A stretch of DNA of 64,000 nt from Psammoneis japonica (GCA_008632985.1 QPGO01000060.1:372001-436000); one strand, 5' to 3'; numbered from the stretch's first letter, positions 12,001 to 38,470 are shown. Notes: a model not told the origin generated them from the letters alone. Program-made: numbers and translations.

Positions 12001-15000
12001 TGCATCACCTTGCTCCACAATGGCCAGACCAAGGTTCTTGTTGGTCACACAGATTGCAAATCTTCAGTCCTTTTGCACTGGACTGTGGAGGGCTTGACAT
12101 TGTCTTGGGGAGAGATTGAAGTGAGATTTTCTCTTGGAGGCTTGTCAGCTGCCACAGTCTGCTGCATTCACAAAGTCCATCATGCAAAGTTCAATGGACC
12201 CAGTTTCTGCCAGTGGAGGAGGGGGTTGAAGCTGGATGGGACACAGATGTTGGGATCACAGTCTTTGTTGAGGTCCAAGACTGAGTTGTCGATGAAGTGT
12301 TTCAGGTGCATGGACAGCTGCAATCACTGTGTGCCTCATCTGTCACAAGGGAAAGATTTTGCTGACTTGGTGCAGAACTCATGGCCAAGACTGGGACAGT
12401 GCATCTAATCAATGACATCAAGACACAACAGAACAAGAGCACAGTTTCATTGCAAGATGTTGTTGGCCTGAAAACAAAGCCCTTCTGCTCCACCAATCAG
12501 AACTCTTCTTTTGCTGGGTCTCCATCAGCCTGAACTTTTGGCTTGACCCCTGCCTTGTTGGGCAGCTGCTTGCCTTGTTGCTCTGCTGCTGAAGCAGCTT
12601 TTGTGCACAAGCATTCATGGCAAACTCTCTCAATTCCAGTGGCAAACTTTCATCCAGATGCATTGAAAAGCATGATCCCCTGGTGAGTTGAGAAAAATGC
12701 AAAAGCCAACGATGAACAAAATCAGCAAGACGAGTGGGCATCCAATGATTTCCATCCAGGTTTTTGAAAAGTGACATGCAAGGACAACAGGCCAGCAAGC
12801 TCACTTGCAGCCAATTGCATGTGGCACTGCATTGTCATGGAGAAATGAATTCAACAGAAGGTCCGGTGCTGTTTCATGCACTGCAGCAGGTTTTGCTCCA
12901 ACCCAACCAACTGACAAAGGAAAGAGCTCTGCTTGAATGCAAAATTTGCAGCAAGGTGATGAGATGAGTTCATCATGCACAGCAACAAGTGTGTGACTTG
13001 TTCCTCAATTGTGGAAGTGTGCATGTTGTGTGCAGCTGTCATGGAGCTGAGTGCACTGATGGCATGCTTTTGACAACAGAGAAAAGAACAAATGACAACA
13101 CAATGAAAGGCTTTTTTCATTGAATGCTGCTTCACAAAATGGCCAGCAGCAAAAAAAGGAAACTTTGAAAGAGAGGAGAGGGCTCCATGATGGGGGCTGG
13201 TTGATTTCATTGTTCCACATGGGAAACATCTGATTGAATGGTGGGACCCTCTTTGCAAAGAGCTGTCATGAAATGGGCAATGCAAAGAGTCAATCACCCA
13301 ACAATGATGGTGTTGGTGAAGCCTTGTCTGATCATTCTTTTTGGCCATGCACCTGGCACAGACCCAGATGACAAAAGAGCCTTCACAGAGAATGCACCAC
13401 TTGGGCTTGTCATCAAATGCAATCTTGGTTTCAAGAGCAGGGAATGGAGCAAAGTCACCCCAATTGGCCTTTCTCCTGTTGCCAGTTTGTGCTTTGATTC
13501 AATGAGATGTTGCTTCTTTGCTGCAAGTGACATCCAATTGTTTGACATGGCATGTGAACCATTCACACACTGTTGGTGTCCATCAACAAATTTCACAGAA
13601 TGGTTGGCAAAATCTGATCTGTGTCACTTGCCATTCCCAGAGCACAAGGCCTGTTTGGCCATTTGCAAGTTGCTGTGTGGCAAGCACAAGGCACCCACCT
13701 TCACAAAGGCTTTCACCAAGCCTGGGTGATTTCCAATTGTGGTTTCATCTGGATCCAAGCAGGTGCCCCACTCACCTTCATTGATCAGTTCCACACCCAC
13801 CAGAGCTGGTGGCCAGACAGCACAATGCTTTGGGATTGGGAGCCAGCGGCATTTGGCTCCCTGACAACACTGCAGCCCATGGCGAAGCACCGCTTCTCAC
13901 CTTGCAACATGGTCATGTCAAGCCTGTCATGCTGACTGAACTGGCTCCTGTCTGGCAACACCACATCCCCAGCTCCACTTGGTGCACACTCATTGTGTGG
14001 TCAAACCCACATGACACTGCTGCCAACTCTGACTTGGAATCCATGGGTGGCTTCCCTCACCACAAGCATGCCAGATGCAGTCATCTTGTGAACACGTGCA
14101 TTTTAAAGTGCCACAAGTTGCTTTCAATGGGAGCACACTGAAGTTGTTCTTGTTCCTCACATTTGAAAATGTTTGCACATGTCAGTTGGCAATTGTTGTT
14201 CATTGGCACTTGCTGGATGACAAGCACTTCATGATCACACACCAACCACATTGAGCAATGTTCTTTTCACTGCCAAATGAAAAGGTCTGTGTTTGTGCAC
14301 TTTGTCAGTTGCTGGATTTTGTTTCATCAATTGAGTGTCCTTCTTCAATGTGGTCAACCACCAAAGTGTGATGACAATCTTTGCTGGGCAATGTTGTGCA
14401 AGTTCATGCAGATTCAAGCAAGCCTGTGCAAGTTTGTGCACGCAAGGTTGGATGCAAGATTGCACCCAGGTTGGTTTTTTTGCTGCCAGCAAACATTCTT
14501 GAGGCATGTGTTGCACAACATGATGACTTCATTTCATCAGTGGAAACAACCAACGTTCTTGAGTTGCTCTGCTTTCATTCTTCTTAGATGTCATTTTGTG
14601 TCCAAATCACTGAGTCTGAAAAACTCCGTGGAAGTTCATGCAAGCCAGCGCAAGCCTGTGCAAGCCTTCCTTCCTGTGAACATCAGTTTGGAAATCAGAC
14701 AAAAAGCACTGCACTTTGCAACATCACCAAAATTAGACAATGACTCCACAGCATGTGAGTTGAAGTAAAATCCAGTGACAAAATGAAGCACACATCTGAT
14801 CATGACCTTTCATTTGTTTGTGGCTTGTTGACAGTGACACAGCACACAATGTAATTTCTCATTGTGTGACATTCTTTGTCATTTGGGCAATGATTTGTCT
14901 GATGTGTGCACTCACATCTCCGCACAGCATGGTGAGTCAACCTGCATGTCAAGCACATGTGAATGGAGTGTTGCACAAGAACACATTTTTTGGGCCACCA

Positions 15001-15099
15001 ATCTGGCATGCCCAGAATGCAGTGCTCTGCTGTCCATGGACACACCACCAAAAAGACAACCAGACAACATCACAGCAAACCACCACAAACAAACCAACT

Positions 15100-16420
15100 G
15101 CCACCATCCCGCATGCATGATTGCCATGCAGCACCAGCAATGCTGCTGTTGCCTTGTCATCAAAGACCACCTGCCTGGCCCCACTGATGTCATGTTGGAT
15201 GATGCCTCATGCCTTTTCAGCCCCAACACTCACAAGCTCCTCTGTCACTTTGACAAAACTTGTTCACAGAACAAACCATGGCAATTGCTGCTTTCTGCTG
15301 TCACCTCTGCACTGCTCAACAATGTGTCAAAGCTGGAGCGGCATCTTCACAATCCAGTGCCACTGAGGGACAATGACAGACATGGGTTGAGTTCTGCAAA
15401 GCCCGCTCCCTGGATCCTGCCCTTCAAGAGTTTGATGATCCTTTTTCCATCCTCCAAGTCTTTGCCAGGCACTGCTGACTTGGGTCTCTTGCCCCCAGCA
15501 ATCACTGGGTCCAACCTCACACAGTGGAAGATGCCCTGCAAAGTGTCAGCCAAGTGTTTGCCGGCGGCAGTGGTGGCCCCAGACCCATGCAAGACCATCC
15601 AGGGTGACACAGACTTCCCACATTTGCTGCCAACTGGCCTGCTGCAAAAACAAATGCCCCAACCAAACTGGATGAAACCCATGCCAGGGCCTGTTTTGCA
15701 TGCACCATGGCTGCGGCAGTCCTTGCCATTGTGTCATTGAGGGCATGTGCATGGCTGACATGATTGCTCTGGCCTTTTTCTTCCTGCTCTGCCCCAGCAA
15801 ACACACCCTGCCCCATCTGACACTGCTCCTTTTCATCCAGGCAATTTCAACAGTTCACCAAGCTTGTTCACCACAACCTGCAGACTGCTGCCAAAGCTGA
15901 CCTGTGGGCACCCACCTTCACCACCCTTGAATTCACTGTGCAGAAGAGTGGAGTCCATGACAGAGTCATTGGCCTCTCTCAGTGGGGACCCACAGTTCTG
16001 CCCAGAGCTGATGCCAGTGTGATGTGTGCTTCACTTGTGCCAGCATGGTGCTGATCCCACCACTCCACTGGCATCATGCCATGAAGGCGTTGCCTTCAAG
16101 CTGGCAAAACCCACCAACCCTGCTTGCACCTTGTGCTCAGTGACTTGACTCCACCTGCAGTGCTTTGCCCAAGGATGTCTCCACTTGCTCCCTCCATGCC
16201 TGTGGTGCCACAGCCCTCTTTTGTGTGCAAGAAGTTGACCCCAACATCACTTGCCACAATGGACATTGGAATTCTGACAAAAATGCTGTGCCATCTCCAT
16301 GTCCAAGCCAAAGCTGTCATGCAAAATCTTTCTTCCCAAATGCCCTCCAATGTGACCTGCTCCCTGATTCCCAACCACAAAGTGCCCCTCTGTGCGGAGC
16401 ACACATCCCATGTTGCACTC
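15100..16420 (+). mobile_element. Degenerate tyrosine-recombinase retrotransposon (Ngaro/DIRS-like): end of RNase H plus YR domain
   Basis: DHLPGPTDVMLDDASCLF (consensus YIPGP.N.MADDASRL), ADMIALAFFFLLCPSKHT (AFFFLLRPxEYT), SLHACGATALFC (SLRAGGATAL), GHWNSD (GRW.SD) and MLCHLHVQA (MLRYLHVQA, catalytic Tyr read as His). Confidence 0.8.
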
Positions 16421-16470
16421 CCACCACCCACAATGTTGACAGCATGTCTTCTGCTCTCCACTGAAGTGTC

Positions 16471-16925
16471 CAGGAACTCAGCTTTGCAGCCAGTTTTGTG
16501 ACAAATGGGTCTGGAGCTCAAGCTCCACAAATGGACCTCTGCCACCAGACTAGATCAGTTTGATGCTGGAGTCAGCTGTGCTGTTTGAAGTGGCAACAGC
16601 TGCTGCAGAACAGGGAAGATGATGCAACAAGGGCCATTGACCAGCTTGAGTCTGTCCAACCAGGGACAGATGCCCCATGCCTGTCACTTGCCAGACCAGC
16701 CAATCACTCATGTTGGCAACTGATCGGTCTCATTCTTCATTGTTGTTGCAACAACAAGGAGTCAGGTGGCTTTAAAGGACCCTTTCACCCACCCCCCCAG
16801 GAACTGGCTCTTTGCAGCCAGTTTCTTGGCAAATGGGTCAGGAGCTTGAGCTCTGTAAATGGACCTCTGCCACCAGACTGGTTCAACACTGGAGCCAGCT
16901 GCACAGTTTGAAGTGGCAACTGCCG
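16471..16925. repeat. Diverged direct repeat of about 130 bp (16471-16605 and 16798-16925)
   Basis: Both copies share CTTTGCAGCCAGTTT, AAATGGACCTCTGCCACCAGACT and GTTTGAAGTGGCAAC. Several differences are CA versus TG. Confidence 0.85.
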
Positions 16926-19154
16926 CCACTTGCATTTCAGGATTGACTGGCTGCCTGAGTTGTCATCATGACACATGGCTGCAAATGATGGAAAGTCATG
17001 ACTGCTTGTTTCCTTTGCCACACATGGTGGGGAACAATGACAGTGAGACAGGCAAAAGCAACATCTTTTCACAATCTCAGCACAGCTTGACAAAACAAAG
17101 AACAAAATGCTGCTGTTCTGTGATGTTGCCACATGGCCTGCCGGCAGTGCATTTTGCAGTCAGGAGCTTGCACTCACAGGAGGTTGTTTTCTTTTGTCAA
17201 CCTGGTCTCATTCACTGCTTTTTTATCTGGTGCCCCTCTTCTTTTCTTGGTGACAGCCCCTTTTTCAGGGACTGAGGCTTCATGTTTCCCGGCTGAGCTT
17301 GCAGGCTGATGTGAGTCTGAGTCTTGTGCCATCATGCTTTCTTCCTCACATCTGTTTGAAGCAGAAAGTGTGGTTTGCTTGCATGCTTTCCAGGCACATC
17401 CTCATTGTCTGAGATGGTGCCAACTCCTGTCACCCCCTTCCTTCCAAAAGAGCCACAACCAGCTCAGAATGAGATGGTGGTGGCTCCACCTCTCACATGA
17501 CAATCTCATTGTGAAAATCTGTGCAACCCACAAAACATGTCAAGGCTTTGAGGACTGGGGGTCATTGCAGAAATGTGTTGCACCATGCATCTTGTCTTGG
17601 AGCCAGGTCAATTTTGACCCCATGGAAGGGTGCTTTTCATTGCTGCATCCTGCTGCATTCATGACATCATGAAGCAAGGAATTGCTTGAAACAAGATGAT
17701 GCCTCATCTGGTGACTCATCTCAGGTGTTCATGACAATCTTGGCAATCTTCTTGTTCTTGAGTGCACCACAGATTTTTCATCACTTTGCTGCTCCATTTG
17801 GAGCTTCTTCAATCATTTTTTCATGTTTCCCTTGTTGCCACAACTTCTGTTCCTTCCATGTGGCAACTCCATGACAAGCTCGGTTGTCCTCTTTGTCTTT
17901 TGCCTCTGGTGCAAACTGTGCTCATCGGCTGTGTTGGAGATGTGCACTCTCCCAGCTGTCAAAAACATGTGAAACACTGTCACATTGTGCAAAGGACTGC
18001 CATGGCTTCTTTCATTTGTTTTCAGTTGCTGCAACAATGTGGGCGCAACAACAGAGACAACAGTGGCAGCTGCCAAGCCTCGGAAGTCACTCGAGGCTTT
18101 GCAATCTGAGCTGCAAGTTGTTGCATGTCAAGCAAATTGAAGTTAAAAGGTGCTGGATTAATTTTTGAAGGCACCAAGGGCAGTGCATCCCCCCCAAGGG
18201 GGCAAGCCCCCACACATGGCATTGACAGTGGAGCTGTGAAGCCTGCGGCGGGTGCTGGGCCTGCTTGAGCTGCCCAAAGGCGCAGCAATCAATCTGCTGA
18301 CCTGGCACACTGCCCAAAGCTTGCTGTGGCCACACATCAGCACCCTTGTTTTTTGTGCAACCCAAGCCAAGTGCATGAAGAGTTTGTTGAAAGAATCTGT
18401 GAACATTTGTGCAAGAATCAGAGGTCAAGCACAAGGGAGCAAAGTTGGGAGGAAGGGCTTGAGTGTCAGCCATGGCAGGTCTGTGCTGGACATCAGCTGG
18501 GCAGGCTTTTGGCAAGCAAGGCTGAGCTCAGAAGATCTGTCATCTGCACACTCTCAAACCAGATGATGTGTTTTCATGCATGCCAGCTGTGCCACACCTG
18601 TGTTGGTCATTCCCAAAGTGCGTGCTTTGAGATTTTTGTGTGATGACCTCAAGCCCAGCTGAAGCTGGACAGAGTGCACTGCTTTGTTTTCCTCAACAAA
18701 TGAAGTCCTTGGTGTCACGAATCCCATGGACAAGCTAAAGCACAAAGGTTTTCCGTTGATTGCTGTGGTGCCAAATGTTGTGTGTTGGACAGTCGCAGTG
18801 TCGGTCATTGTGCATGCACCGCAAGCAAGCATGAGCATGGTAGCGCATGCACTCGCTCATGATGGTTGTCAGTCTGCAGTCACGCTTCCACGCGATGCCT
18901 CTTATCTTCATCGACTAATTTCTATTCCAAAGAACATAGAAAATATAAAAAAGCAACTCAATTCAAGGTCAAAATCGAGCAATATTCGGCGATTGCAGTG
19001 TTCTCTTTCCTGAGGCCTGTATGTGGCTGTCACAATGCCAGAGACAACGAGAGGACAATGGCGGTAAGAAAAACGTGATTGTTTATCACTGAAAGCTTGT
19101 GAATATGCCTAAGTTAAGTGACATATCTCATGTTAAGTCATTTTTGTTGCAAAG

Positions 19155-24034: not shown

Positions 24035-24784
24035 ATATTATACAACATCGTCAATGGATAGTCATTCAAAATTCAAAATTTCGGTTTGTCCGTCATCGCG
24101 ATAAACCAAGCAAGGAGACGAGGAACGAGGAACAACAAGAAGATGTGCGTGTGCGTGTCCTGACGACTCACACTCGTTGCGCGGCCTGCCAGACTTCCAT
24201 TGTCGTCTCATCTTCAGGTCCATCACACCCACGGTGCTTTCCTGGGACAGGGCATGTCTTCTTGAAATGCCACCCTCCATGCACCAAGGAAGGGTGACGC
24301 TTTCGATTTTCCCACCCTCTTCCACGGTGTCCATTGATGAGAATGGGTGAGAGCACCTTGGCCCCGTGGTTCTCTTGGCAAACCACATGCTTCTCTTTCA
24401 GTCCCTTTGCATCAGCAAACAGCTTCAATTCTTCATGAAAAGCAATCCACAGGTGTGGCTCTCATTGTTTGCAGTTTTGAGGCAAATGGGCACTTCAGTT
24501 TTCACCTTCTCAACTGGCAGGGAGTCGGAGCGGCTGTGGACATGTTTGCTGCTGCAGCAATCATGACTTGATGTTTTGCAAGGATGTGTGTTGAGTCTCT
24601 CACAAAGTGTCAAGGAAAAAATCCATGGAGAGCACTTGGCAATTGCGGTTCTCTGCATTTTTGTTTGTTTCACATTTGTCGTTGAACGCTCTTGTTGAGA
24701 TTTGTGTGGGGCCTGCAAATTGACACAGTGTGTGTGGCAGTGCCACAAAAATGTTGTTTGTTTGTTGCTCTGCATGGAGATGAA

Positions 24785-24810
24785 AACAACAACAACAACA
24801 ACAACAACAA
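24785..24810. repeat. (AAC)8 microsatellite
   Basis: AACAACAACAACAACAACAACAACAA read directly from the sequence. Confidence 0.9.
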
Positions 24811-25279
24811 GAATGACAACTGTGCAGCAGCAATGAAAAAATGAGAACTTCAGCACTTCTTTTTCAGCGTGAACATTTTTGCTTGCAGAAATTGTCAAAA
24901 TGCCCCACTGACTGCATTGCAGCTTGATCATTTCAATCATTTTAAAATGCAAACCAGTGCTCAGTGCTGTGAACATCAAATGAGTGCAATGATGCAAGCA
25001 CAGTTCATTGTCATGATCCGTGGCAATGCCACAAGCAAAAAGCAGGAAATGCATTTGAAAACCCACTGGCATGTGAAGAGGCAGAAGCTCTGCCAGATGG
25101 AAGGAAAAAGACAGAATTGTTGAAGCTGTTGCCCGGGGGGCCAGTTGTGACAAGCCAAGCAAATCAAGATCTGACAACTTTGATGCATGGTGGTTTCATC
25201 AGGCAAAGGAGAAGACAACTGCAGACACACAATGGATGAGGAAAATTTGCCCAACAGCACCTTGAATCATGCAGCATTG

Positions 25280-26240
25280 TGCAACTTGCCATTGTGCTTG
25301 ACATCAAGCGCAGCTTCTGCATCTTCCACCACAACAAAGCCAGAACACACACCTGCATTGGCTGCATTGGTTCACATTCTGACCCTCCTGAAAGCACAGC
25401 CAGAGGCCAATCTTTGATGCAGCCAATGTGGTGCACCTGTGAGATTGACCACAAAGACCATTTTGGCATTACATCCAAGATGCAAATGTGCTGCTCTTCC
25501 AAGTCCTGTCAAAAGCAAATGTTCATCAGCTCAGCCATCCATGAGACAGAACAAGGAAATTCCTCAAGGAGTGCAAGAGACAGACATGTGCTCAACCATC
25601 AACTTGCTTTTTCTTTTCTGGCAATGGGATCAGGAGGCCAAGATGCTTCAAAACTGCTTGGACTGCTGGACCTGCCAAATGCAAAGAGCATGGGAAAGGA
25701 CACTTTCTCTCATGTCAAGAGAAAGATTGGTCCAATGATGTGGAGCATTGGTGATTCATTGCCGGATCATGCCCTTCAAAATGAGGTTTGGGCCACACTG
25801 GAGGAAATGCCACAGCAAGGTGTCACTTTTGATGCATGGAAAACAATGCCTCCTGTGAGAATGGCACCCAACTTGGTGTGTGCCCTGAAATCACAGCATC
25901 CACTGACATGGGCTGGCAAGCTTGTCTCATGGCCAATGCTGGCATGCCTCTCACCACTGCCTTTCTTGGCACCAAGCTTCACAAGCGAATTGTCAGGATG
26001 GTCTTGTGAAAGCAATGCAGCATGTGCGTGCAACACACCAACCACACAGCTGTGCTGATGCGTGAGTGCCCCTTGAACTGCAAAGGTCATTCAAAGTCAA
26101 TGGAGGCACACAGCACTGTTCAGTTGTGCAAGGAGACATGTCATGAGAAAAAGAAAGTGTGCCTTGGGTTGGTTGTTGCAGATTGCAACTCCACGATGCG
26201 GGCTCAGCTCAAGTGCCGGGCTCAAAAAACCTGGTGATGT
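25280..26240 (+). mobile_element. Degenerate DDE transposase (Mutator-like-domain / Kolobok-type)
   Basis: HVLNHQLAFSFLAMGSGGQDASKLLGLLDLP, ASTDMGWQ (about 25895-25920), CPLNCKGHSKSMEA and LVVADCNSTMRAQLK occur across frameshifts. Termini were not identified. Confidence 0.7.
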
Positions 26241-27629
26241 TGCTGGAGACCACACTGGAAATGAGACAAACTCACCTGCACTGGTGACAGCAACCAAAAA
26301 GGCAAGCAAGACAGCAAAGGTGTGCAAATCTTGCAAAGGCACTTGTTGATGACAAGGCAGATTTGGTGATGATGTCATGGAGAGGGTGTGATGCCGTCGG
26401 CGCAAAATTGAAAAGGGAATCAGGGTTCTGTTGAGTTGGATTTTTGATGAGTGTGATTTGCTTGACAAACTGCCGCCGCTGAACCCTGACAATGATGATG
26501 ACACTTTCCAGATGCTCTTGCAGAGGATGACTTTGCAACAGGCACTCAACACATCAATCAGCAACATTGTTGTGAACACAAACACATGAAAAGCCCCCCG
26601 GACAAAGTTGCAATCGTTCAACAATGAAGAACACATCAAAGTGACTTGTCGAAAAACAGAGCTCGGCATTGGGGCGAGGTTTTGCTTTGGAAACGAAGGT
26701 TGCTCACGGGACTTTCATGACTGAGTGCGTTCTTAAACTTGACAAACTAAATGTCTAAAGACAAAAGACTCTGGGACACGTTGCTGACATGACAAATGTT
26801 GCGACAACACACCACCTTCACGTCGCCGCCTTCTCTAGAGTGGTTGTCCGCACAAATGCCACATTTGCGCTGCATGGGGCCCTGTGGCATCACTGTGGCA
26901 TTTCCATCCAAAACGCCACCACTGTTTTTACAATGCATGCTCCCCAACTGTTTTGCCGTTGTCAGCAAAGCATCAAACACCGCAGGGCAAAGGGGCAAAG
27001 GCCTCTGAGCACCAGCAAAAAACCGAATTGAGTCCTTGTGACTGAACTGAGTCCTTGTCCAACCCACATGTTGAATCGATCGATAAAATGATGAAAAAAC
27101 CAAGCAACCAAACTGTTTTTGTTGCTGTGACAATCTTCAATTGCTGCTGCTTCTGACCGTGTGTTTGGATTTGGGTGTTTCAGTTTTCTCCGGCTGCCCG
27201 TTGCCGTCGAACATGGTTGTTTGCATTTTTTGAAGCGAAAACAAGATTCAACAATTCGCACGAAACTTTTTTGTTAAGCCACACATGTCACATGTCATCA
27301 CTTCTCCATGCTGCTTGCTGATTTGGAGGTGTGTTGAATTTTTTCTGGTGCTTGACACGCAGAAATGTACAGAGGGACCGAATTGAGTCACTGCGTGAAA
27401 AAGGTGCAACTTTTGCGGCCATTTGAGCTAATCCCAAGCCCATTTCACAACCAACTGTCATCAGAGAACTCGTCAAGAGATGATGAAAAGCTAGGAAATG
27501 CAAAGAAATGGTCAGTTTTAGGCCAATGATGGGCAAAAAATGGCCATTCAACATGTGGCAAAAATGAGGACTCAATTCGGTTTTTCACTGGTGCATGAAA
27601 AATGAGTTCGTCGCAGTCGGAAGCCATGA

Positions 27630-27804
27630 TGCAAGATCTGGCTTGAGATGACTTGAAAAAAGTTGTGCAAGAACCGAGGAGAGACCCCATCATTGCTGAT
27701 GTGGGGCAAACCCAACGGTTCCCGGCACATCTAATGTGTCAGTCAACACACACACATCAGAGAGGGCACACTCGGTCACAAAGTGCATGTGCCCATCTCA
27801 TTCA
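27630..27804 (-). repeat. 3' LTR of the Gypsy element
   Basis: Ungapped 175-bp alignment to 33421-33595; preceded on the minus strand by the polypurine tract. Confidence 0.95.
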
Positions 27805-30137
27805 CTCTTCCCCTCCATGGTGCAAGGGACACATGCACCATTGGAACCACTTGACTAAAATTCAAACCCAATGCGCACGGAGAAGGGAACCCAGACGTTG
27901 GGAAGAAACCCTCAACTCTGATGCGGCACCACATGGCGAATGTCAATTCGCTCAATGAGGTGCGGTGCTTGCAGCACCGAAACAGTCCCGTTGGCACAGA
28001 CTTGCACAATTTGAAATGGACCACAAGCTTGTTCTTCCAACTTTGAAGGATCCACCGACTTGATTGACACATCTTGACCAACTGGACAATTGCAGGAATG
28101 GTGCTTCGCATTCTGTCATCGTAGATTCTCTTGTCGATCAACACTTGTCAGTTGGCTTGTGTTGTTGTGAGGTCGGAGACAACAGGTGGGTCCAAAATCA
28201 CATCACGTTGAAACACTGGAGCTCCACTTGAAACACCCGCAGACCTTGAGTGGGAGCATCGCAAGGCACAGGAGGCTGTGGCAAGGGCATCGTCCACAAT
28301 CTGCTCGGCCTGTTGAACATTCAAAGGTGGGTTAGTGACAACCACAGTGCACAAGATGTCAGCTGCCGTCTGGTGCATTTGTTCACAAATGGAGTTGGCT
28401 GTGGGATTTTGAGATGTTGTCGGTGCATCAGCAATGCCCGCTTGGTTCAGTGGCATCTGAAATTCCCAACCAATGAATTCTCCACCATTGTCATGAATGC
28501 ATCGATTCGGTCTGGGATGACGAGCCAACCAAAGGTTGCAAAACTTGTCAGTCACATGCTGAGAAGTTTTGTTGTCAATGCGCACGAGTTCAGTCAATCC
28601 AGCAACAGCATCAATGCAAGTGAGAGCACTGAATTCAATTTCTTGGTCTTGAATCATTGTCTTCCACGGTCCAATGAGATCAACTGCTGCTTCCGTCCAC
28701 GGAGCTAACGGCGCTTGACGTTGAGGCAATTCTCCACAGCCAGGACCCAGTTGTTCAAATTGTTGACATGCATCACAGACAAATTCATTGCAACGTCGAC
28801 GCAATGCAGGATGATGCATGTGAGTCCGAACACTTTCGTGCAATTGCACGACTCCACAATGGCCCAATGTGCGATGACACCATGCAATGACATCCCGCAA
28901 CAACGCAGCAGGGAACACAAATCTTCCAGGCTCCAGGCGGATCATTCAAATGCAAACGACAACAAATCAGGGGACGATGGTTCACAATCTTGACCACAAA
29001 CTGCTGAGGGTTTTGTTGTCTTTGCTGATTCAGTTGGAGGTCTTCGAACTGGAACTGTTGGATCCTCAACATCTCAGTGGGATTTGGCATCTCGTCCAGT
29101 GTCGGGTGATTCAAAAAGCATTCAAACAATTCAGGCTCATTGAGCAGAGAGGAAAAGGCGGCGCGAGACTCATCAGAAGGATCAACAGGAGCACGGCAAC
29201 ATTTGAACCTGCAAGCGCCCAACTCCAAATCTTCCTCTTCCTCTTCCTTGCTCAGTTCACTGGAATCCAACTTTTCAAAATGAACAATTTTTCCTTTGCG
29301 TTTGCCACTTGGCCCAAGGCTCTTCACCTCCAAAGGCGGATCCACACGTGGCAGATGAGAAAAACAATCGGCGAGCACGTCATCCTTGCCCTCGACATGC
29401 TCAAACGCAGGCGCAAAATCTTTGAGGAACAGTCGCCAACGAAGGACACGCTGTGTGTTCAAAGTGCGAAAGGTGAGATTTTTGTGATCAGTGTGAACAG
29501 TGATTTCAGCACCGAGTGTCATTGAGCGAAATTCCTTGAAGCACATGACGACGGCCAGGAGTTCCTTTTCCATTGTTGACTGACTCCGTTGAGCCGCCGA
29601 AAGCTTCTTAGACCAACGCGCCACTGGCTTGCCATCTTGAATGACAGCGGCGCCCATCTGGCAGTCTGATGCATTGGTGCAGACATGTCGAACACTTTCT
29701 GGCATGATTCCATCCATTGGAACTGACTCTTGCCTGTCAATTCAGTCAGAGGTGCAAGCAGGTGAGAACGGTGAGGCCACACATTGCGACAGTGAGTCGC
29801 TGCACCGAGAAACGATCGGAGTTGAGCAGTGTTCTGTGGAGGTTGCATTCGTAGAATCGCTTCGACCTTTTTCTTCCACGGTTTGACACCAGTCGGAGCA
29901 AGCCAATGCCCCAGGAAATTGGTTTCTTGAACACACCACTCGCACCTCAACGGGTTAACTTTCAAACCATTCTCCTCAAGACGATGATGCAGCACCTTGT
30001 CAAGACGAGAGAGATGGCAATCAAAGTCAGCATCAAATGCGCCAACATCATCAACATGAGTTTCAACATCCAAACCATGAAGAATCTTTTCAACAATGGA
30101 CTGAGCAATGTCTGGAGCTGGCTTCAATCCCACAGCC

Positions 30138-30527
30138 GACGGGTTCCAGTCCTAGGTGGGACTCCGTGTGACATTGGGCCCGTAGAATTCTACGTGCGAG
30201 CTCCGCAGTGCTAGAATTTAATTAATGGATGTGTTTGTCTTCAACATCAAATGAACTGCCAAGTTTGTGGTACAATTATGCCTCTTGCCACTCGACGTTT
30301 CTGCAAATGCGCCTGCCCTACGCGATTCTTAAGACATTATAGAATCGCGCTGTAACAAAAAATGTCAAAAGTTGTTGGACGGATCGCTCAATAAGTGTAC
30401 CGTAAAATGACACAAAATATCGAAAAAATCACGTAGAAATCTACGTGCGCGACATACGACGTGATTCAAAAAACTATCGATGTCACAGTTCAGTAGTACG
30501 AGGTCCCACCTAGACCTGGAACGCGTC
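30138..30527. mobile_element. 390-bp MITE inserted in the Gypsy RT; 30-bp imperfect TIRs, 4-bp TSD AGCC
   Basis: Left end GACGGGTTCCAGTCCTAGGTGGGACTCCGT; reverse complement of right end GACGCGTTCCAGGTCTAGGTGGGACCTCGT. AGCC lies at 30134-30137 and 30528-30531. Excision restores the RT frame GKFQCCRMA-VGLKPAPDIAQ. Confidence 0.93.
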
Positions 30528-33420
30528 AGCCATGCGACAGCACTGGAACTTTCCGCAGGGAGTTGCAATTGCAGCGAGCTCCTTGCTTTCATCGTCCAAT
30601 TCCAAATTGTAGTAGAACACAGTGAGATCCAATTTCGTGAAGAATTTGCAGCCCGCTCTCCGCTGCAGCACATCTTGAACAACCGGCAGAGGACACACTT
30701 TCCACTTGAGGACCTTGTTGAGCTCCCAAAAATCTGATGCCCATCGCACTTGACCATCTTTCTTCGGAGCAATGAAGGTGCCAGCTGCCCATTCCGTAGG
30801 TCCACATGGTCGCAGCATGCCGAGATTCACCAGATGCTTTCCATTCCTTCTTGAATGCTTCTTCATTGACTCGAGCAACAGGAAACGGTTTTGAGTGATG
30901 AGGAACAGCGTTTTCATCCACTTCAAGGTGCACCTTTTCATGAGGATGGTGGCCCAACGTCCCATCAAATAAAGTCGAATGCTTTTCCAACACCGCTGGT
31001 GGCTTCTTCTTTTGTTCTTCTGTGAGATGGTCCAAGTTCCAAACTGCCTCCGCCAGATCCGTCGCTTCGCACTTGGCATCAAGCGTGTGGGTGTCATGTC
31101 CGTCGTCGCATCCGCAGTCCGACTCGTCTTCACAATCTTCATCAAATTCATCCATTTGGTCTGGGGCAATGTGCCAATTGCAGGACTTGGACCAATGACG
31201 AGGTTCCTTCATTGGGATCACACGGTCTAGCCAATGCAGCGTTCTCGCATCACAGTTCAAATTGAGACCAATCTTGTCCAAGAAATCTCGACCCAAAATG
31301 ACATCATGCGCACACGGAGCATTGAATGCGTGAGCCACACAGCCGTCAATCCTCCTGGTCTTGTCGAATTCTGGCAATGCAATGTCGCTCAAGGCCACCC
31401 AATGGCCAGACTGGAAAGGACCTGCAACGGTTTGAAAAGCTCGGACTCCATGTTTGTCAATGGATGGCACAGCTCCTCGAGGTAAAACTTGAGACGAGAT
31501 CATAGTGTGAGAACCACCTCAGTCAAACAAAACACACATCACATGATTCGACTCATGCCGTTGGATCAATTTTGCAACAAGTGGTGCAGATGGGACCAAC
31601 GCGGTGCGCGAGACTTGCGAGTTCATTTTGGGGAGAGGAATGTCACATTCAAACGCATCTTGATCAAACACATCCCCCTCTTCATTCATGCAATTTTCTG
31701 CAGCATTTTCAAATTCAACATGCAACAATTTGTCAGGATTTTCAAAACAGTCAAAAGCAAAACATTCGTCATTTCATTCAGGCAAAACACAATCATTTTC
31801 ATCAACAAGTGCTTCTCTCACAGGCAATTGGGAGCATTCAGCTCCGGAGCATTCAGCTCCGGAGTTTCAGAACTGCCAAGGAAACTGCCCATCTGGCTGA
31901 AACCTCACCACACCTCCACAACATGGAGGGCCTCGTCCGATCACATTGAAATGGTGCACATCACCATGAGGAGCTTCTTGAGCCTGGTTGTTGTCACTCA
32001 CATTGTCTGCTTGAGCAGCACATCCATCGGCCTGACCTTGGCCTCCACGGTTGTTGTTTTCATTGCAACAATGTTGACCGCCACCTTGGTTGCCATTGTT
32101 GTTCTGGTGTCCATTGTTGTTGTTGTTACAACAGGTGCCATGACCTCCTTGGTTCTGGTTGCCACGACCACCAAAGCATCCACCGCCTCCACGGCCTTGT
32201 CCACGGCCTCCTTGGAAACGACCTCTGCCTCGACCTCCACCGCCACAGCCTCCTCCTTGACCGCCACGGTTTTGAGGCCCACGACAGTTGGGGTTGTTTG
32301 GATCATCACAACACTGGCCCCACGCATGCCTTCCATGGTGCCACGGGACCGGACACGGATCACTCGCCTTCGGCTGGCCCCTTGTTGTCCTTCTTGTCTC
32401 GGTTGCCCTTTTTGTCACTGGAGTTCCCTCCATTGCCATTGTTGGACTTGCGTTTCTTGTTGTCTTGACCGTTGGCGAACACCTTCTCGTTGCTCATGCA
32501 GGCTTGGACATCCACCATCAAATCCGCAACAAGGTTCTTGCCCGCATGAATGTGGGGGCTGTTGCCAGGTCAAAGGAAAGGTGTAAAAGATGATGTTCTT
32601 CTGCTCCTGCTCTGTAAGTTCAGGAACGGTTCCAGGCAAACGGTTGGCACAACGAAACAAGGTTTCCATGCGATCAATGTGAGTTTCCAATTCCGCTGAA
32701 CAAGGCTTTTTGCAAGCAGGCAAATGCATCTTCATCGTGTCGCGAGCTGTCGGTTTTACGCAGTGCAAACAGCAAGCCGAGACAGCCTCATTGAATTGAG
32801 CTGCCGTTCGTTGATTCTGTTGGACACCCATGGCAATGTTCTGCCATTTTGCCTCCGCAGTGCCTTGGAGACAATCCTCAAAAGCATCAAACAATTCTGT
32901 TCCAGCATCGCAGTTGAGCTGTCTTGCCACCTTCCGGAACCCATCCTCCACGTGCAACAATGATTCAATTCCATGCTCTCCTGTGAAAACAGGACACATT
33001 TTCGAAAGTTCAGTGCCATCATCAAAGGTTTGAGTGAGCTTCACTTCCTGCAATTCTGAATCTATGAATTTGGTCTTACATTCAACGCACGCTTTCTCCA
33101 AGGCTTCTTGACACATGGCGATGATCAACAATCCACAAGACAAACAAAATGAGGTGCTCCCATTTGATCCACACAACAAGAACAATTGACAACCAAACAA
33201 GAACAAATTCAACAGTGGCAACACGTGCTTTGAGTTCAAAAAAATGCTGCTCCGCATTGCCAATTTCACGAGCAAAGTTGCACTGCGCTTCTGATCGATT
33301 TTGAATGAAATTTTCTGCATGAGCTCGCAAACAAATTTTCTCTCTTCTCGACAACACTCTTTGCGTTGTCACAAAACAGATGATGCAATGAACAAGCTGT
33401 GACAACGACTGCAATTGCAG

Positions 33421-33595
33421 TGCAAGATCCAGCTTGAGATGACTTGACAAAAGTTGTGCGAGAACCGAGGAGAGACCCCATCATCGCTGATGTGGGGCAA
33501 ACCCAATGGTTCCCGGTGTGTCTGGTGCATCAGTTGATGTGCACATGTCAGAGAGGGCACACTCAGTCATAAAGTGCATGTGCCTGTCTCATTCA
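33421..33595 (-). repeat. 5' LTR of the Gypsy element
   Basis: Ungapped 175-bp alignment to 27630-27804 with 26 mismatches. Confidence 0.95.
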
Positions 33596-34323
33596 CACGA
33601 ATCATCAACGCCGGCATGCCTTTTTCACACGCTTTGTGGCATTCCGTAGAATCAGTGCCAGGTCCGGCATAGAAAGAAATGCCACATGGCATCATGGCAT
33701 TTGTGCGGACAACTTCTGGTGGGGTCCGACAGAAAATCGATCCTGAACCAGGCCTGCGGGGAGCATTGACCACTTGTCTTTCTTTGTGGGTGTGGGTGTG
33801 TGCCGCTGCATGCTGCATTGCCTGCACTCCTGCGCACGCAGGGCCCTGCCGCCGGGGCCGGCATTGTGTGTGGCGGCTGAGTGGCGTGGCCACCGCACCG
33901 GTGATGCGGATGACCGTCATGTTTGATGTCTCATGCCATTTTTGGGGCTGTGGCGAGGTGCACGGACACTCTTTTTTTTCCAATTTATCGCCACAACAGC
34001 GCATCGCACAAACTCTCTTGTTGTTCGATGTGTTTTTCCCAATGTGACTCTTTCGTGTAGAATTCACGACATGTTGTCTTTGTGCGCAACTGAGTGCATT
34101 TTTGAACATGCCACGCCGGCAGCCCCAATTTTTCAGAACTTTCGAGCTCTCCTGAAAAACCGTGCCACGCACCCGTCGCAGGGAATTTGTCGATTTTTTA
34201 GGATGTCCCCACGACCTCTCATGTCCTCAATGATCATTCTACGAATCCGAAGAATTCATCTGTACTAAACAACCCATCCCGTTCCAAAATCCGAGGGACA
34301 CACTTTCAAATTCAGACGGACAA

Positions 34324-34380
34324 CCCGACCCCCCGACTGCCCGACTGCCCGACCCCCCGACTGCCCGACTGCCCGACTGC
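34324..34380. repeat. 8-bp tandem repeat CCCGAC(TG/CC), about 7 units
   Basis: CCCGACCC CCCGACTG CCCGACTG CCCGACCC CCCGACTG CCCGACTG CCCGACTG read directly from the sequence. Confidence 0.9.
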
Positions 34381-34488
34381 CGGACCGACACGAAAAAGTC
34401 TGCAATCACCAACCACTGAGTGGTCAATGAAAATCAAATCAAATCGTCTTGCTTTCACCTAAAAGTACGCGACAGTGACGGTGAAGCC

Positions 34489-36699: not shown

Positions 36700-38470
36700 G
36701 CTGATGATGATCCTGCCTCAGCCTTCCTCTCTCCTTCTTGTGAAATGTGCCAGCAGCTGTGGATGTGATTCTTGCCTGTCAATGCTCTCTGCAGACAAGC
36801 AGTCGGGAGCTCTTTTCTGTCACCCCATGGCGCCGGTAGATTCTTTCCAACTGGCTCTGGAGCTGACGAAACCAGAGAATTTTGAGCTGCCTGATTGTGA
36901 CAATGCTTGGAATGCGTTCTGTCTGCACACTTTCCTGTTTGCAAAGTTTTCAAGTCAGGATCCCAGGACGGTTCTAGAGGAGCTCTTGCCCTCTTGCTCT
37001 TTTGAGTCACTTCCTTGCCTCCGCTCGCATGTTGACCGGTGGCGGCATTTTCTGCTTGAACAGCTTGCCTCTCCCACTTCTGATCCCTTTGTCATCGATG
37101 TGGACATTGACAAAGCAGCTTCCAAGGTGGCGCATGAGTCCATTTTGCCTGTGCAGCCCCCTGAGCGATGCCCTGATGCGGGTTGCCCGTGCAGCCCTGC
37201 CGCATCTTGTCGATCTGGTTCTCTGCCACTGAGATCAATCAGGGCCTTTGCTTTCCCTTTGCATCCTTTTGATTGGGTTGACGGTTGTGTTTGCGATGCT
37301 CCTGCTTCTGGGAATGATGCTGACGTGTCTCTTTGTTTTGGAACAGACGCCACATTGGATCCTTCCAAACTCCCCGACGACGACCCATTTTCCCCTGGAT
37401 TGAAGTCTTTGCAGCTGCACCCCATTGCAAATGCTGTGTTGCCACTGCATTCCTTTGGTTGGATTGATGGACTTGGCTTTGAAGGTTCTTCCATTGCCCC
37501 AGCTGGCTTTTCTCTCAGGTTTGGTTCTGCTGCGACTTTGGATCCATCCAAGCTGCCCCACGACGACCCAAACGAGGATGCCCCGCACCCCGTCACATGG
37601 ATGACCAACCTCTCCTTGGATGTCTTGACCCTTTCTGATGATGACCCAAGCCGTCTTTCCTTGCCGTTTTGTTGTTCTGCTCCCTGGTTTGATGACCCAA
37701 TGTTGGATTTGTCGAAGCTGTCCAATGACAACCCTTGCTCTTCTTCTTCCAACTGGGGGAGGGTTTCTTGTGCTGCACTGCCTTGCAGCGGATTGTCCGG
37801 TGGACTGTGGCACGGCATTTGTGGATGTGTTTTTCTGATGACAGCATCATTTGCTCCATTTGTGCGGCTCTTCTTTTTTTGTGATCAAACCCATGCTTTG
37901 ATCAGGGGAGGGTGTTGGTGCACCGGAGCCAACACAATCAACGAGGTCTCAGACAAAGCAACTGTCCTTCCTTCCCCAACGTGCTTCACTGATTCAAGAT
38001 TGTCGACCAAATCTAGCACTGCTGACCACTGCTGGTTTGTCCGTCATCGTGACAACCGACCAAACAAGGAGAGGACCAACCAACAAGCTGCCATGGCCTG
38101 ACCTTTCATGGCACAAAGGCATTTTGGCAGTGTGCAAACAGAGAGATTTTTGGAAAGGTCCAACAAGCAGCACAGAGTGGCGAACATGCAAGCATTGCAA
38201 TTGACGAATGCCGTGATTTCCAACCAGAATTGTTGGCCCTTGCAGATGTGGGCAGGTTGCAGGCGAACAGACCAATCCACACTGGGGCTTCAAAACTGAG
38301 AGAAACTCTACTTGTCGAGAGACCGTTTCCTTTTGCAGTGCGGGGATCAAAGCTCAAGGTTGCTGGTTCATGTTCTGACTGGCGCAGAGTGAAGACGAAG
38401 ATGGGGAGACCTTTCATCCACTGAGATTCTTGGTGCCCCCACGGGCCTGTGCTACAGAGATGGTGCATTG
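36700..38470. other. Hypermutated block 3: chimeric repeat relic with a Tyr-free ORF (36704-38101) and a captured gene fragment
   Basis: TA is nearly absent while CG is partly retained. The ORF has LDPSKLPxDDP-like internal repeats and includes the NCA2 fragment. Confidence 0.75.
37937..38033. repeat. 97-bp mutated copy of NCA2-like coding sequence (21970-22066)
   Basis: Ungapped alignment with 6 differences, 4 of them TA to CA or TG. Confidence 0.95.

Follow-up and report, generated by a model that had tools for sequence, protein, structure and literature searches.

TpA-targeted transitions in an integrated LTR retrotransposon and neighbouring DNA of a Psammoneis japonica assembly: likeness to Bigelowiella natans hypermutation

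Introduction

How have two long terminal repeats (LTRs) that were identical at insertion come to differ almost exclusively by transitions, many of them in adjacent pairs? The question is raised by an element at 27630–33595 of a 64,000-nt window, the whole stretch of DNA analysed here (Psammoneis japonica, GCA_008632985.1 QPGO01000060.1:372001-436000). A preliminary description, made from the sequence alone, attributed the divergence to transitions at self-complementary TA and CG dinucleotides, one copy having been changed on one strand and its partner on the other. Our analysis supports this attribution, with TA as the main target.

The retrotransposon and its LTRs

The element is a degenerate Ty3/gypsy-type LTR retrotransposon on the minus strand (Table 1). 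It has direct LTRs with TG...CA ends and a 5-bp target-site duplication, and reverse transcriptase (RT), RNase H and integrase follow in this order on one strand (Pfam, tblastn), with homologues in tblastn jointly covering 27915–31650. No intact gag-pol frame is left: pol is broken into at least five frames, the integrase frame terminates at a conserved Arg codon that is now TGA (28150), the catalytic YVDD is now HVDD (His codon at 30058), a nested non-autonomous TIR element (MITE) lies inside RT, the RT N-terminal and upstream region is split between two overlapping frames, and gag has no family match. A TGG-type tRNA primer-binding site was not recognisable beside the 5′ LTR. The MITE (TA o/e 0.81, CG o/e 1.39) retains 24 TA. 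Six contigs of the family are without it, with 30132 joined to 30527 or 30529, and its summed depth is 90k–200k versus 2–4k for its host element. The MITE is either a later insertion or not a target of hypermutation.

Table 1. Features of the window, with positions counted from its first nucleotide.
Feature	Position	Strand	Properties	Basis
Older hypermutated block, no recognisable domains	4501..18500	.	TA o/e 0.04, CG o/e 0.09, CA/TG o/e 1.9	
Hypermutated DNA receiving the retrotransposon insertion	24301..27629	.	TA o/e 0.01–0.12, CG o/e 0.18–0.65	
Target-site duplication, left copy	27625..27629	.	CATGA; one CG/TG transition versus right copy	
3′ LTR (element orientation)	27630..27804	-	175 nt, TG...CA	repeat search and ungapped comparison
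Polypurine tract adjoining 3′ LTR	27805..27816	-	GGAGGGGAAGAG on minus strand	read from sequence
Integrase frame	28148..28945	-	265 aa	Pfam Integrase_H2C2 E 5e-5 and rve E 1e-3, both below curated cut-off; tblastn
RNase H frame	28785..29741	-		Pfam RT_RNaseH E 3.5e-21, above cut-off; 17211 library matches
RT, C-terminal half	29519..30132	-		Pfam RVT_1 E 2e-4, below cut-off
Nested non-autonomous TIR element (MITE)	30133..30528	.	40-nt arms, 78 per cent complementary	
RT, N-terminal half, and upstream (protease-side) region	30529..31518	-		RVT_1 E 1.8e-3, below cut-off; tblastn 30504–31650
Gly/Asn-rich frame and gag-side frame	31867..33368	-	no family match	Pfam
5′ LTR (element orientation)	33421..33595	-	175 nt	repeat search and ungapped comparison
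Target-site duplication, right copy	33596..33600	.	CACGA	read from sequence
Flank, TA-poor but CG-normal	33597..34450	.	TA o/e 0.17, CG o/e 0.94	
TA-free block, half of CG kept	36900..38100	.	TA o/e 0.03, CG o/e 0.5	
Hypermutated block extending past window end	62001..64000	.	TA o/e 0.03, CG o/e 0.14	

The repeat search returned 176 nt, of which the 176th, a shared C, already belongs to the right-hand duplication and to the internal region as the initial base of each; the LTR length is therefore 175 nt, as previously given. In the ungapped comparison (27630–27805 versus 33421–33596), the pair shows 26 differences, 25 of them transitions and one a transversion (A/C at 27657/33448). Tabulated by YR step, they comprise nine doublets (CA/TG seven times, TG/CA twice), four sites with CG versus CA or TG, two with TA versus TG or CA, and one additional A/G difference at 27734, a recount identical to the preliminary one in every class. 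Two CG steps and no TA step are unchanged in both copies. The target-site duplication is likewise mutated, as had been noted, its copies agreeing at four of five letters. Adjacent differing positions number 12, versus 3.7 expected (P = 2e-5; 200,000 placements), and 25 random transitions produced a mean of 0.78 doublets and never more than 6 (100,000 trials). CA and TG outcomes interleave within 2–10 nt. These changes arose after integration, in each LTR separately.

Direction of change

Conserved codons and a duplicated segment show that TA was converted to CA/TG. The integrase frame contains no Tyr among its 265 residues, as had been claimed, and the seven sense-frame ORFs contain five in 1866 residues, versus a median of 3.9 per cent among 150 homologues. 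The 17 conserved Tyr codons now encode Cys (seven), His (five), Tyr (two), Phe (two) and Gln (one), so that 12 of the 17 have become Cys or His; conserved Met has changed to Val at five of six sites. Across 390 conserved sites, defined from 132 Tyr-normal homologues, we found 104 mismatches. Sixty are single transitions, 49 of which lie in TA or CG context, a count slightly inflated by assigning ambiguous codon paths (several possible ancestors) to the targeted class first. The changes are TA>TG (22), TA>CA (11), CG>CA (11) and CG>TG (5), or 33 of TA type and 16 of CG type. Conserved Arg codons that were kept or lost by CpG-type change number 26, with 17 kept, all as CGN, and nine lost. In a 100-nt duplicate, the copy in normal DNA (21970–22069) has TA, and the copy in a depleted block CA/TG, at four of the seven differences.

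The preliminary description had named one finding that would reduce the LTR signal to ordinary CpG decay, namely that all doublet sites were once CG. The same LTR sites are occupied by TA, CA and TG in other family copies from public contigs. Among the matches listed, the ancestral state is directly visible at at least three of the nine doublets, with TA at 27726–7 and 27744–5 and apparently CG at 27737–8. Together with the conversion of Tyr codons to Cys and His, the two TA doublets contradict an all-CG origin. Under a simple two-rate model of the LTR table, about eight of the nine doublets were formerly TA and about one was CG. Differing places across the family in the public contigs amount to 1227 transitions versus 265 transversions. 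Between the two LTRs, the K2P distance is 0.174 versus a transversion-only distance of 0.0057, which bears out the earlier expectation of inflated LTR dates; the usual LTR-based dating of such elements is unusable here.

Composition of the window

Hypermutated blocks overall have TA o/e of 0.01–0.17 and CA/TG o/e of up to 2.2, their edges are sharp (to ~100 bp), and some 1-kb stretches carry zero TA or CG. The retrotransposon without its MITE has TA o/e of 0.05–0.07 and CG o/e of 0.65, and older blocks have 0.01–0.04 and 0.09–0.18, respectively. GC content is 0.45–0.53 in the blocks versus 0.48 in the whole window, with no consistent shift. Fourteen host ORFs (24,342 nt) have TA o/e of 0.43, 0.58 and 0.55 by codon phase and CG o/e of 0.89–1.07; non-ORF DNA of normal blocks (9,946 nt) has TA o/e of 0.63 and CG o/e of 1.02. 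Across the window, hypermutation is confined to certain blocks rather than genome-wide, and host ORFs and intergenic DNA are spared; homology marks only one of the depleted blocks, that of the retrotransposon, as a mobile element. CpG decay is a component separate from, and slower than, the TA loss, because the flank at 33597–34450 is depleted in TA but not in CG (Table 1).

The loss also depends on the tetranucleotide. The 79 TA sites surviving in depleted DNA are divided into 41 YTAR, 35 mixed and 3 RTAY, versus 213, 645 and 394 among the 1252 TA sites of normal DNA (chi-square P = 2.5e-15): RTAY is lost and YTAR is spared.

New mutations may be among the surviving TA sites. An ORF at 460–2721 encodes a single-domain C5 DNA methyltransferase, putatively DNMT1-like, and no deaminase or thymine dioxygenase gene was found within the window.

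Proposed mechanism and alternative explanations

The best explanation, and in our judgement a probable one, is a two-strand change of TpA to TpG/CpA that acts on mobile DNA after integration, accompanied by a slower CpG process. A Ty3/gypsy-type element would insert and generate the 5-bp duplication; the integrated copy would then be hit on both strands, TpA becoming TpG or CpA (A:T to G:C) in mobile DNA only, until ~90 per cent of the element's TpA sites were lost. CpG would be converted to TpG or CpA more slowly by another process, of the 5-methylcytosine type, which would remove ~35–50 per cent of the element's CpG sites. Palindromic sites would be resolved independently in each LTR copy, so that a doublet results wherever the two LTRs ended up differently, one with CA and one with TG. 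The four LTR sites, the 16 CG-type conserved-site changes and the CG o/e of 0.65 to 0.09 across blocks match the CG>TG/CA pattern of methylated-CpG decay, methylation itself being putative.

A different chemistry at the same sites is unlikely, although it would leave similar letters. In silenced mobile DNA, the thymine of TpA might be oxidised enzymatically (to 5-hydroxymethyl- or 5-formyluracil, by an enzyme of the TET/JBP type) and pair with G, giving T>C with no adenine deamination. 5-Formyluracil mispairs with G, and because TA is palindromic, a change of A and a change of T look alike in sequence. Dinoflagellate 5hmU is described as a TET/JBP enzyme product that is enriched on transposable elements and that older work placed preferentially at TA and TC (PMC11572971). 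In Breviolum it is enriched on repeats, and base-resolution mapping is reported to have found no sequence motif (PMC11071213). Against oxidation, TC is not lost here (o/e 1.17–1.23 in the element versus 1.05–1.08 in the flanks) and CC is not raised, the host is without dinoflagellate gene features and has genes interleaved on both strands, and no TET/JBP-type enzyme was found within the window.

It is improbable that the transitions are absent from the DNA and reflect modified CpG and TpA bases miscalled by a long-read basecaller. At methylated motifs, most nanopore consensus errors are transitions. The best public run contains 0.45 of the sampled words of 27400–33800, and at 7 of 40 listed places, 4 of them CG versus CA/TG, all the public contigs aligned there disagree with the letter in the window; independent reads therefore confirm the exact copy in part. 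However, the alternation of CA and TG over such short distances and the differences between LTRs that share context fit neither strand-majority nor context-determined miscalls. Balanced miscalls would leave many TA or CG calls, whereas there are 1-kb stretches with none. Furthermore, when other copies in contigs from public runs are compared, CA, TG and TA all occur at the same LTR positions, and these contigs, the longest of which is 315 kb, must have been built from accurate reads. The TA retained by the MITE and the intactness of host ORFs, which reach 1227 aa, also argue against miscalling.

Two further explanations are extremely improbable. The first is ordinary CpG decay alone, with all doublets derived from CG and the low TA inherited by the family. 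The four LTR sites that are plainly CG versus CA/TG, the CG/TG difference in the target-site duplication, the doublet at 27737–8 and the C5 DNA methyltransferase gene in the window agree with it. Yet it needs ~25 CpG in 175 nt and ~80 per cent decay, whereas the interior keeps a CG o/e of 0.65 and 17 of 26 Arg codons as CGN, and it is contradicted by the Tyr codons, by TA at two doublets in other copies and by TA-depleted blocks with normal CG.

The second is ADAR-like editing of transcripts (5′ U preference) across retrotransposition cycles, fixed via reverse transcription. In the retroviral replication scheme both LTRs are reverse-transcribed from one template, so RNA edits cannot yield nine doublets that each require one change per LTR on opposite strands; flanks and non-retroelement blocks bear the same signature, and neither HVDD nor an Arg-to-stop change is transmissible through an active lineage. 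The TA context does agree with the ADAR 5′ neighbour preference (bioRxiv 10.64898/2026.01.13.699255, Discussion), and edited retroelement fossils are described in vertebrates (PMC4866542).

Comparison with known systems

Some basidiomycetes direct hypermutation of transposons at CpG. Methylated-CpG decay shares the CG>TG/CA part of the present pattern (the four LTR sites, the target-site duplication, 9 of 26 Arg codons and the CG o/e of 0.09 in older blocks) and explains none of the TA loss.

Repeat-induced point mutation (RIP) of fungi is triggered by sequence duplication, depends on a sexual stage and requires a RID-type C5 methyltransferase. The locus resembles RIP, as the latter is described, in its transition-only changes, which fall on both strands of mobile or repeated DNA, its dinucleotide preference, its sharp skewed blocks and its dead elements. 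RIP changes C:G to T:A, mostly CpA to TpA, and so creates TpA and lowers GC (PMC2621366), whereas the target here is TpA, changed by A:T>G:C transitions, and TpA loss without a consistent GC shift does not match RIP.

Animal deaminases (APOBEC on cDNA, ADAR on dsRNA) likewise act against mobile elements by deamination (PMC4866542), and ADAR and tRNA adenosine deaminases are described as acting on A preceded by U, which resembles the TA context. Such editing precedes or accompanies integration and affects one strand, whereas here integrated DNA was changed on both strands and the LTRs were hit independently; an ADAR-type fossil, with edits identical in both LTRs and on one strand, is contradicted by the nine opposite-strand doublets. 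For amphioxus ADAT2, deamination of A as well as of C in DNA has been reported (PMC10354150).

The 5hmU of dinoflagellate transposons is a mark directed at transposable elements and historically tied to TA, as the changes here are TA-targeted, but no mutational consequence of it is reported (PMC11572971, PMC11071213). Moreover, the TC context is unaffected here and the host does not resemble a dinoflagellate.

In Bigelowiella natans, hypermutation of TpA to TpG/CpA on integrated viruses was measured directly. As described there, two integrated viral regions gained 231 mutations in mutation-accumulation lines, 230 of them A>G or T>C; every AT>GC mutation fell on TpA, at ~6e-7 per site per generation, ~1000-fold over background and only in some lines. 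TpA-poor CDS are enriched in RT and DDE domains, and an ADAT2-type DNA adenine deaminase is proposed (bioRxiv 10.64898/2026.01.13.699255). The present locus likewise shows A:T>G:C changes confined to TpA and yielding TpG/CpA on either strand, as seen in the 33 TA-type conserved-site changes, the fate of Tyr (12 of 17), the TA o/e of 0.05–0.07 and TA at two doublets elsewhere. As in B. natans, integrated foreign or mobile DNA is affected and host DNA (here with TA o/e of 0.43–0.63) is spared, and the long-term trace consists of TpA-poor, CpA+TpG-rich clusters with TpA-poor RT/DDE coding sequences.

Whereas mutation-accumulation lines gave a measured rate for B. natans, the process is known here only from its fossil trace. 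The NCLDV region there is described as partly depleted (Rho TpA 0.45), whereas depletion here is near saturation (0.01–0.07). TpA makes up 3.7 per cent of normal DNA here (1252 in 34,000 nt) versus 6.0 per cent in that report, and the hosts appear to differ (best eIF2-alpha match 48 per cent, best DNMT match 57 per cent). A CpG component, LTR elements and a tetranucleotide preference, all three seen here, are not mentioned in the available text of the report (bioRxiv 10.64898/2026.01.13.699255). Given these differences in content and, apparently, in organism, it is from the signature that we infer an enzymatic process that would be identical to the TpA hypermutation of B. natans.

TpA-targeted DNA editing has so far been reported from only one other alga, B. 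natans. Tentatively, and with more doubt than confidence, we suggest that such editing may not be peculiar to one chlorarachniophyte: a second, unrelated-looking protist (proteins nearest to diatoms, <60 per cent identity) might use it to eliminate all classes of mobile DNA to saturation, with a defined RTAY preference that would point to a sequence-reading enzyme and with a CpG arm, possibly through one natural deaminase of double-stranded chromosomal DNA that acts on both A and C. The window can be read as a probable further case of the recently described B. natans-type hypermutation.

Transition doublets in the LTR pair

The two LTRs of the element, a degenerate Ty3/gypsy-type retrotransposon, align without gaps over 175 nt (TG...CA) and differ at 26 positions, by 25 transitions and one A/C transversion. 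The repeat search returns 176 nt for the pair, but the final common C is part of the internal region at one copy and of the target duplication at the other, and therefore lies outside both LTRs. Sorted by pyrimidine-purine step, the differences include nine doublets, which read CA in one LTR and TG in the other (the left copy has CA in seven and TG in two), four steps with CG in one copy and CA or TG in the other, and two steps with TA in one copy and TG or CA in the other; the remaining A/G difference adjoins a TA/TG site. Two CG steps and no TA step are unchanged in both LTRs, and 28 CA or TG steps are common to both. The total and the step classes reproduce the counts of the preliminary description, and the target duplication, which it had reported as mutated, indeed reads CATGA and CACGA on either side of the LTRs. 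An 8-nt extension of the LTR match (27622-27629) in a purine/pyrimidine-coded self-comparison was taken as chance, since it conflicts with the duplication and with the TG start.

Differing positions are neighbours in 12 cases, compared with 3.7 under random placement (P = 2e-5), and randomly placed transitions produced a mean of 0.78 doublets and at no time exceeded six in 100,000 trials. The uneven orientation of the doublets was rejected as a sign of processivity (7 CA versus 2 TG in one LTR; binomial P = 0.18). As had been proposed, LTR dating is inflated here: the K2P distance of 0.174 compares with a distance of 0.0057 from transversions alone. In genomes of this type, insertion ages mean nothing until the sites derived from TA and CG have been masked.

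Ancestral state of the doublets

We fitted the LTR counts with a model in which each dinucleotide type decays with one probability of its own and the direction of change is random. For CG (two steps kept in both LTRs, four in one), the fit gives p of about 0.5, about 8 original sites and about 1 doublet; for TA (none kept in both, two in one, and the remaining 8 doublets), it gives p of about 0.94 and about 18 original sites. The estimates of TA and CG loss from coding sites agree with both fits. The fitted values imply that 27726-27756, in which 14 of the 26 differences are concentrated, was a TA-rich stretch.

Other copies of the family were sampled by placing contigs of public runs at 80% likeness. 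Among the matches listed, the doublet at 27726-7 reads TA in one contig, as does the doublet at 27744-5 (with a 2-nt insertion), and the doublet at 27737-8 apparently reads CG in one contig, judging from the letter that precedes the re-alignment point. Site 27713-4, which is CA in both LTRs, reads TA in one of the matches listed (the same contig as at 27726-7) and TG in another, so all three states occur at one site. The earlier proposal that symmetric TA or CG steps were hit, as opposed to CG at every doublet, is thus upheld by TA in other copies at two doublets and by the single former CG doublet, approximately, of the model. The two TA sites that survive in only one of the LTRs are in CTAA and ATAA contexts. 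Family-wide, the differing places in the best public run comprise 1227 transitions and 265 transversions.

Self-comparison of the 64-kb window yielded short pairs only and no further copy of the element, and the purine/pyrimidine-coded version, in which transitions are invisible, added no other LTR pair in the window. In metagenome scans, none of 591 pattern matches to relatives of the RNase H frame was confirmed, and a 23-nt LTR pattern had no match.

Direction of change at conserved coding sites

Among 1.84 billion representatives, 17,211 matched the RNase H frame, and 132 of the best 150 have normal Tyr content. We placed these 132 homologues on the element by tblastn and scored a site if at least 8 homologues aligned and at least 60% agreed. 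The element is mismatched at 104 of the 390 sites scored. Its 17 conserved Tyr sites now encode Cys (7), His (5), Tyr (2), Phe (2) and Gln (1), whereas most other residue classes are retained at 58-96%; apart from Tyr, the exception is Met (1/6 kept). Met became Val at 5/6 sites and Ile became Val with a preceding T at 4/6, and these replacements are TA>TG changes across a codon boundary.

Single transitions account for 60 of the mismatches, and 49 of them are in a TA or CG context (TA>TG 22, TA>CA 11, CG>CA 11, CG>TG 5), with a slight bias towards this class because codons with several possible ancestors were assigned to it first. The other mismatches are 25 transversions and 19 multi-step changes, the latter being in keeping with the low identity of the relatives (40-58%). 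The ratio of 22 TG to 11 CA was rejected as evidence on the direction of TA changes, because the protein always shows a first-position A>G and mostly hides a third-position T>C. Among conserved Arg codons, the 17 kept are all CGN and nine were lost through CpG-type changes. From the Tyr and Arg counts, the loss since the functional ancestor is about 86% of the tested TA (12/14) and about 35% of the tested CG (9/26).

A 100-nt duplicate provides a small natural experiment that agrees with TA as the ancestral state: at 4 of its 7 differences, TA in the copy in normal DNA at 21970-22069 corresponds to CA or TG in the copy in a TA-depleted block at 37937-38036. This duplicate is one of two patches of an NCA2-domain frame that recur 14-16 kb away. 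The distant patches are about 1.7 kb from each other, versus 180 bp in the frame, with a TA-free block between them, and TA>CA/TG changes occur in the patch at the block edge; they may be parts of one gene fragment that an insertion has separated, or paralogue exons.

Block-wide composition and two separable processes

In 500-nt steps, the window is bimodal in TA, CG and CA/TG observed/expected ratios (o/e), and the LTRs show locally what holds across whole blocks. GC content shows no consistent shift (0.45-0.53 in hypermutated blocks, 0.48 in the whole window). Block edges are sharp, within about 100 bp; for example, TA is dense up to 24102 and next occurs at 24943.

Features of the window, with observed/expected ratios where obtained
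Feature	Positions	Strand	TA o/e	CG o/e	CA/TG o/e	Remarks
Methyltransferase frame	460-2721	+				753 aa; single C5 DNA methyltransferase domain (Pfam E 1e-45)
Hypermutated block, 14 kb	4501-18500		0.04	0.09	about 1.9	
Direct repeats in the 14-kb block	6695-7085, 16470-16926					
NCA2-domain patches (16, 34 aa)	21748-21788 / 36200-36240; 21970-22069 / 37937-38036					
Hypermutated block	24301-26400		0.01	0.18	about 1.9	
Element (ratios without insert)	27630-33595	-	0.05-0.07	0.65	1.5-1.65	
LTRs	27630-27804, 33421-33595					
Gag-side frame and Gly/Asn-rich frame		-				first in order; no family match
Reverse transcriptase, two pieces		-				Pfam RVT_1 E 1.8e-3 and 2e-4, both under curated cut-off
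RNase H		-				Pfam E 3.5e-21
Integrase		-				Integrase_H2C2 E 5e-5, rve E 1e-3, both under curated cut-off
Nested insert	30133-30528		0.81	1.39		
Spurious frame in element	31486-32586	antisense				366 aa
Right flank of element	33597-34450		0.17	0.94	1.3-1.5	
CG run, 8-bp period	34317-34391					in right flank
Hypermutated block	36900-38100		0.03	0.5	1.4-1.6	
Long open frame	44489-48172	-				1227 aa; no Pfam match
Tandem repeats in 1227-aa frame	45008-45460, 46224-46727					
Long open frame	49007-51967	-				986 aa; no Pfam match
Hypermutated block	62001-64000		0.03	0.14	1.7-2.2	

Codon phases 1-2, 2-3 and 3-1 of 14 long host frames, 24,342 nt in all, have TA o/e ratios of 0.43, 0.58 and 0.55, respectively, with a CG o/e of 0.89-1.07; non-frame DNA of the normal blocks (9,946 nt) has a TA o/e of 0.63 and a CG o/e of 1.02. 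A genome-wide mutation bias restrained by selection does not fit, because the host frames, the non-frame normal DNA and the insert nested within the element are all unaffected.

Loss of TA is complete where loss of CG is partial or absent, as in the right flank of the element, in the block at 36900-38100 and in the homologue P0036, a library protein in which 13/14 conserved Tyr are changed and 18/19 conserved Arg are kept. The two processes are therefore separable, and the TA process is the faster or the earlier one. It has a tetranucleotide preference, and its survivors are non-random: depleted DNA (26,104 nt) still contains 79 TA sites, of which 41 are YTAR, 35 mixed and 3 RTAY, whereas the 1252 sites in 34,000 nt of normal DNA are 213 YTAR, 645 mixed and 394 RTAY (P = 2.5e-15). 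No ATAT survives, and TTAA and CTAA are over-represented 3.5-3.8 times among surviving TA sites, part of which may be new mutations.

The excess of CA and TG is unequal in places (CA 2.16 versus TG 1.66 at 62001-64000; CA 1.48 versus TG 1.76 at 26401-27629), which may reflect strand-biased action or ancestral composition. The 14-kb block has lost almost all of both TA and CG, its direct-repeat copies also differ by CA/TG doublets, and no protein family was recognisable in 11 of its frames. A Pfam search of 19 frames from the hypermutated blocks apart from the element found no family, and Rfam and tRNA scans of the whole window found nothing.

The element and its nested insert

Homology of the element is exclusively on the minus strand, and its domain order is that of Ty3/gypsy. 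A polypurine tract adjoins the 3' LTR, and no tRNA-type primer site was recognisable at the element. Diatoms supply the closest named relatives of a related pol protein (Nitzschia inconspicua, 51%). This copy is dead: pol is split across different frames, TGA replaces a conserved Arg codon at 28150, the catalytic YVDD reads HVDD, and an insert breaks the reverse transcriptase.

The reverse transcriptase is interrupted by an insert of roughly 396 bp with 40-nt imperfect terminal inverted repeats. Six family contigs in a public run join 30132 to 30527/30529 without it, so the insert is later than the element. In the best public run, its summed depth exceeds that of the element by a factor of 30-70 (90,000-200,000 versus 2,000-4,000), which makes it a very high-copy MITE. 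Its TA (24 sites) and CG are normal; at 30253, it reads TG, while 85% of the family depth is TA. CAG on both sides of the insert is a possible 3-bp duplication.

Mechanism and alternatives

The independent changes in the two LTRs show that the target is DNA that has already integrated. Both strands are hit, only mobile-DNA blocks are affected, and the process has a four-base preference. The agent is probably an enzyme rather than spontaneous decay, and the chemistry would be adenine deamination. TA is palindromic, so an altered A and an altered T have the same outcome, and the trace would be identical if a modified thymine mispaired with G. The accessible texts on dinoflagellates report that 5hmU marks transposons (PMC11572971, PMC11071213) and was historically found in TA and TC (PMC11572971); in the element, however, the TC context is untouched. 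An assembly artefact, with modified bases read as transitions, has a low probability. Only 0.45 of the words of the element stretch are present in the best public run (X1), and next to none in runs X2 and X3, and at 7 of 40 listed places no contig has the letter of the window, but CA and TG outcomes alternate within a few bases, the LTRs share their context and differ in outcome, accurate-read contigs of other copies show the same three-state variation, and the insert within the element is unaffected. The Tyr data and the doublets themselves contradict two further readings, CpG decay alone and pre-integration RNA editing.

An enzyme that naturally makes A:T>G:C changes in chromosomal DNA and prefers certain four-base contexts would be a novel one, and the sparing of YTAR and erasure of RTAY provide a concrete specificity for candidates. 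Among 29 of 70 further host-block frames, Pfam identified no deaminase or dioxygenase, and the sole match was a weak PH domain. The closest solved relatives of the 753-aa methyltransferase frame are DNMT1 catalytic domains (E 9e-27); among named proteins, the nearest belongs to the diatom Cylindrotheca closterium (36%). Diatom DNMT4, according to the accessible part of its description, is a single-domain DNMT1-like protein of a group related to the fungal RIP enzyme RID (PMC9998398); the frame appears to have this architecture and is a candidate member of that family, as a lead only. In a library with MMETSP and EukProt entries, the best matches of this frame and of an eIF2-alpha frame have 57% and 48% identity, respectively. 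Host genes of the window look intron-poor and are on both strands.

Scarred frames in public protein libraries

The best 150 of the 17,211 relatives of the RNase H frame include 12 Tyr-poor proteins (among them P0036, P0049, P0132, P0124, P0017 and P0093). At 68 conserved Tyr sites, these have Cys 24 times, His 25 times and Tyr 7 times, whereas 12 control proteins have Tyr at 64/92 such sites and Cys at none. Public data thus already contain scarred frames under protein annotations. No Tyr-poor protein occurs among the 119 closest relatives of P0036. Because TAA and TAG are almost absent from depleted blocks, long spurious frames arise on both strands, such as the antisense frame within the element. 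For annotation, this means that open frames are long in all six phases of affected blocks, and that homology to transposon proteins fades.

Comparison with known systems

In the full-text literature, we found TpA-directed hypermutation described only in a preprint on Bigelowiella natans (bioRxiv 10.64898/2026.01.13.699255), and otherwise papers on fungal RIP. RIP resembles the process in the window in logic and is opposite in chemistry, as it creates TpA and lowers GC. According to the accessible text of the preprint, 231 of 302 nuclear mutations in B. natans mutation-accumulation lines were in two integrated viral regions; 230 of these 231 were A>G or T>C, with the AT>GC mutations all on TpA, at a rate of about 6e-7 per site per generation and in only some lines (bioRxiv 10.64898/2026.01.13.699255). 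The same text reports 124 TpA-poor, CpA+TpG-rich clusters, finds RT and DDE domains enriched among TpA-poor coding sequences, and proposes a DNA adenine deaminase of the ADAT2 type (bioRxiv 10.64898/2026.01.13.699255).

The window is probably not B. natans DNA: the MMETSP and EukProt sets include B. natans, yet the eIF2-alpha and methyltransferase frames have no match above 48% and 57% identity, and TpA makes up 3.7% of the normal DNA of the window (1252 in 34,000 nt), versus 6.0% in the preprint. The accessible text of the preprint mentions neither CpG nor LTR elements. The signature in the window corresponds to the long-term trace predicted in that text, here saturated and on a retrotransposon. 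The LTR pair adds an internal control: it shows that integrated DNA is the target, that both strands are hit and that each copy changes independently, which counts from mutation-accumulation lines alone do not reveal. We therefore file the hypermutation in the window with the kind recently described in B. natans, which suggests that a defence reported in one alga is more widespread.
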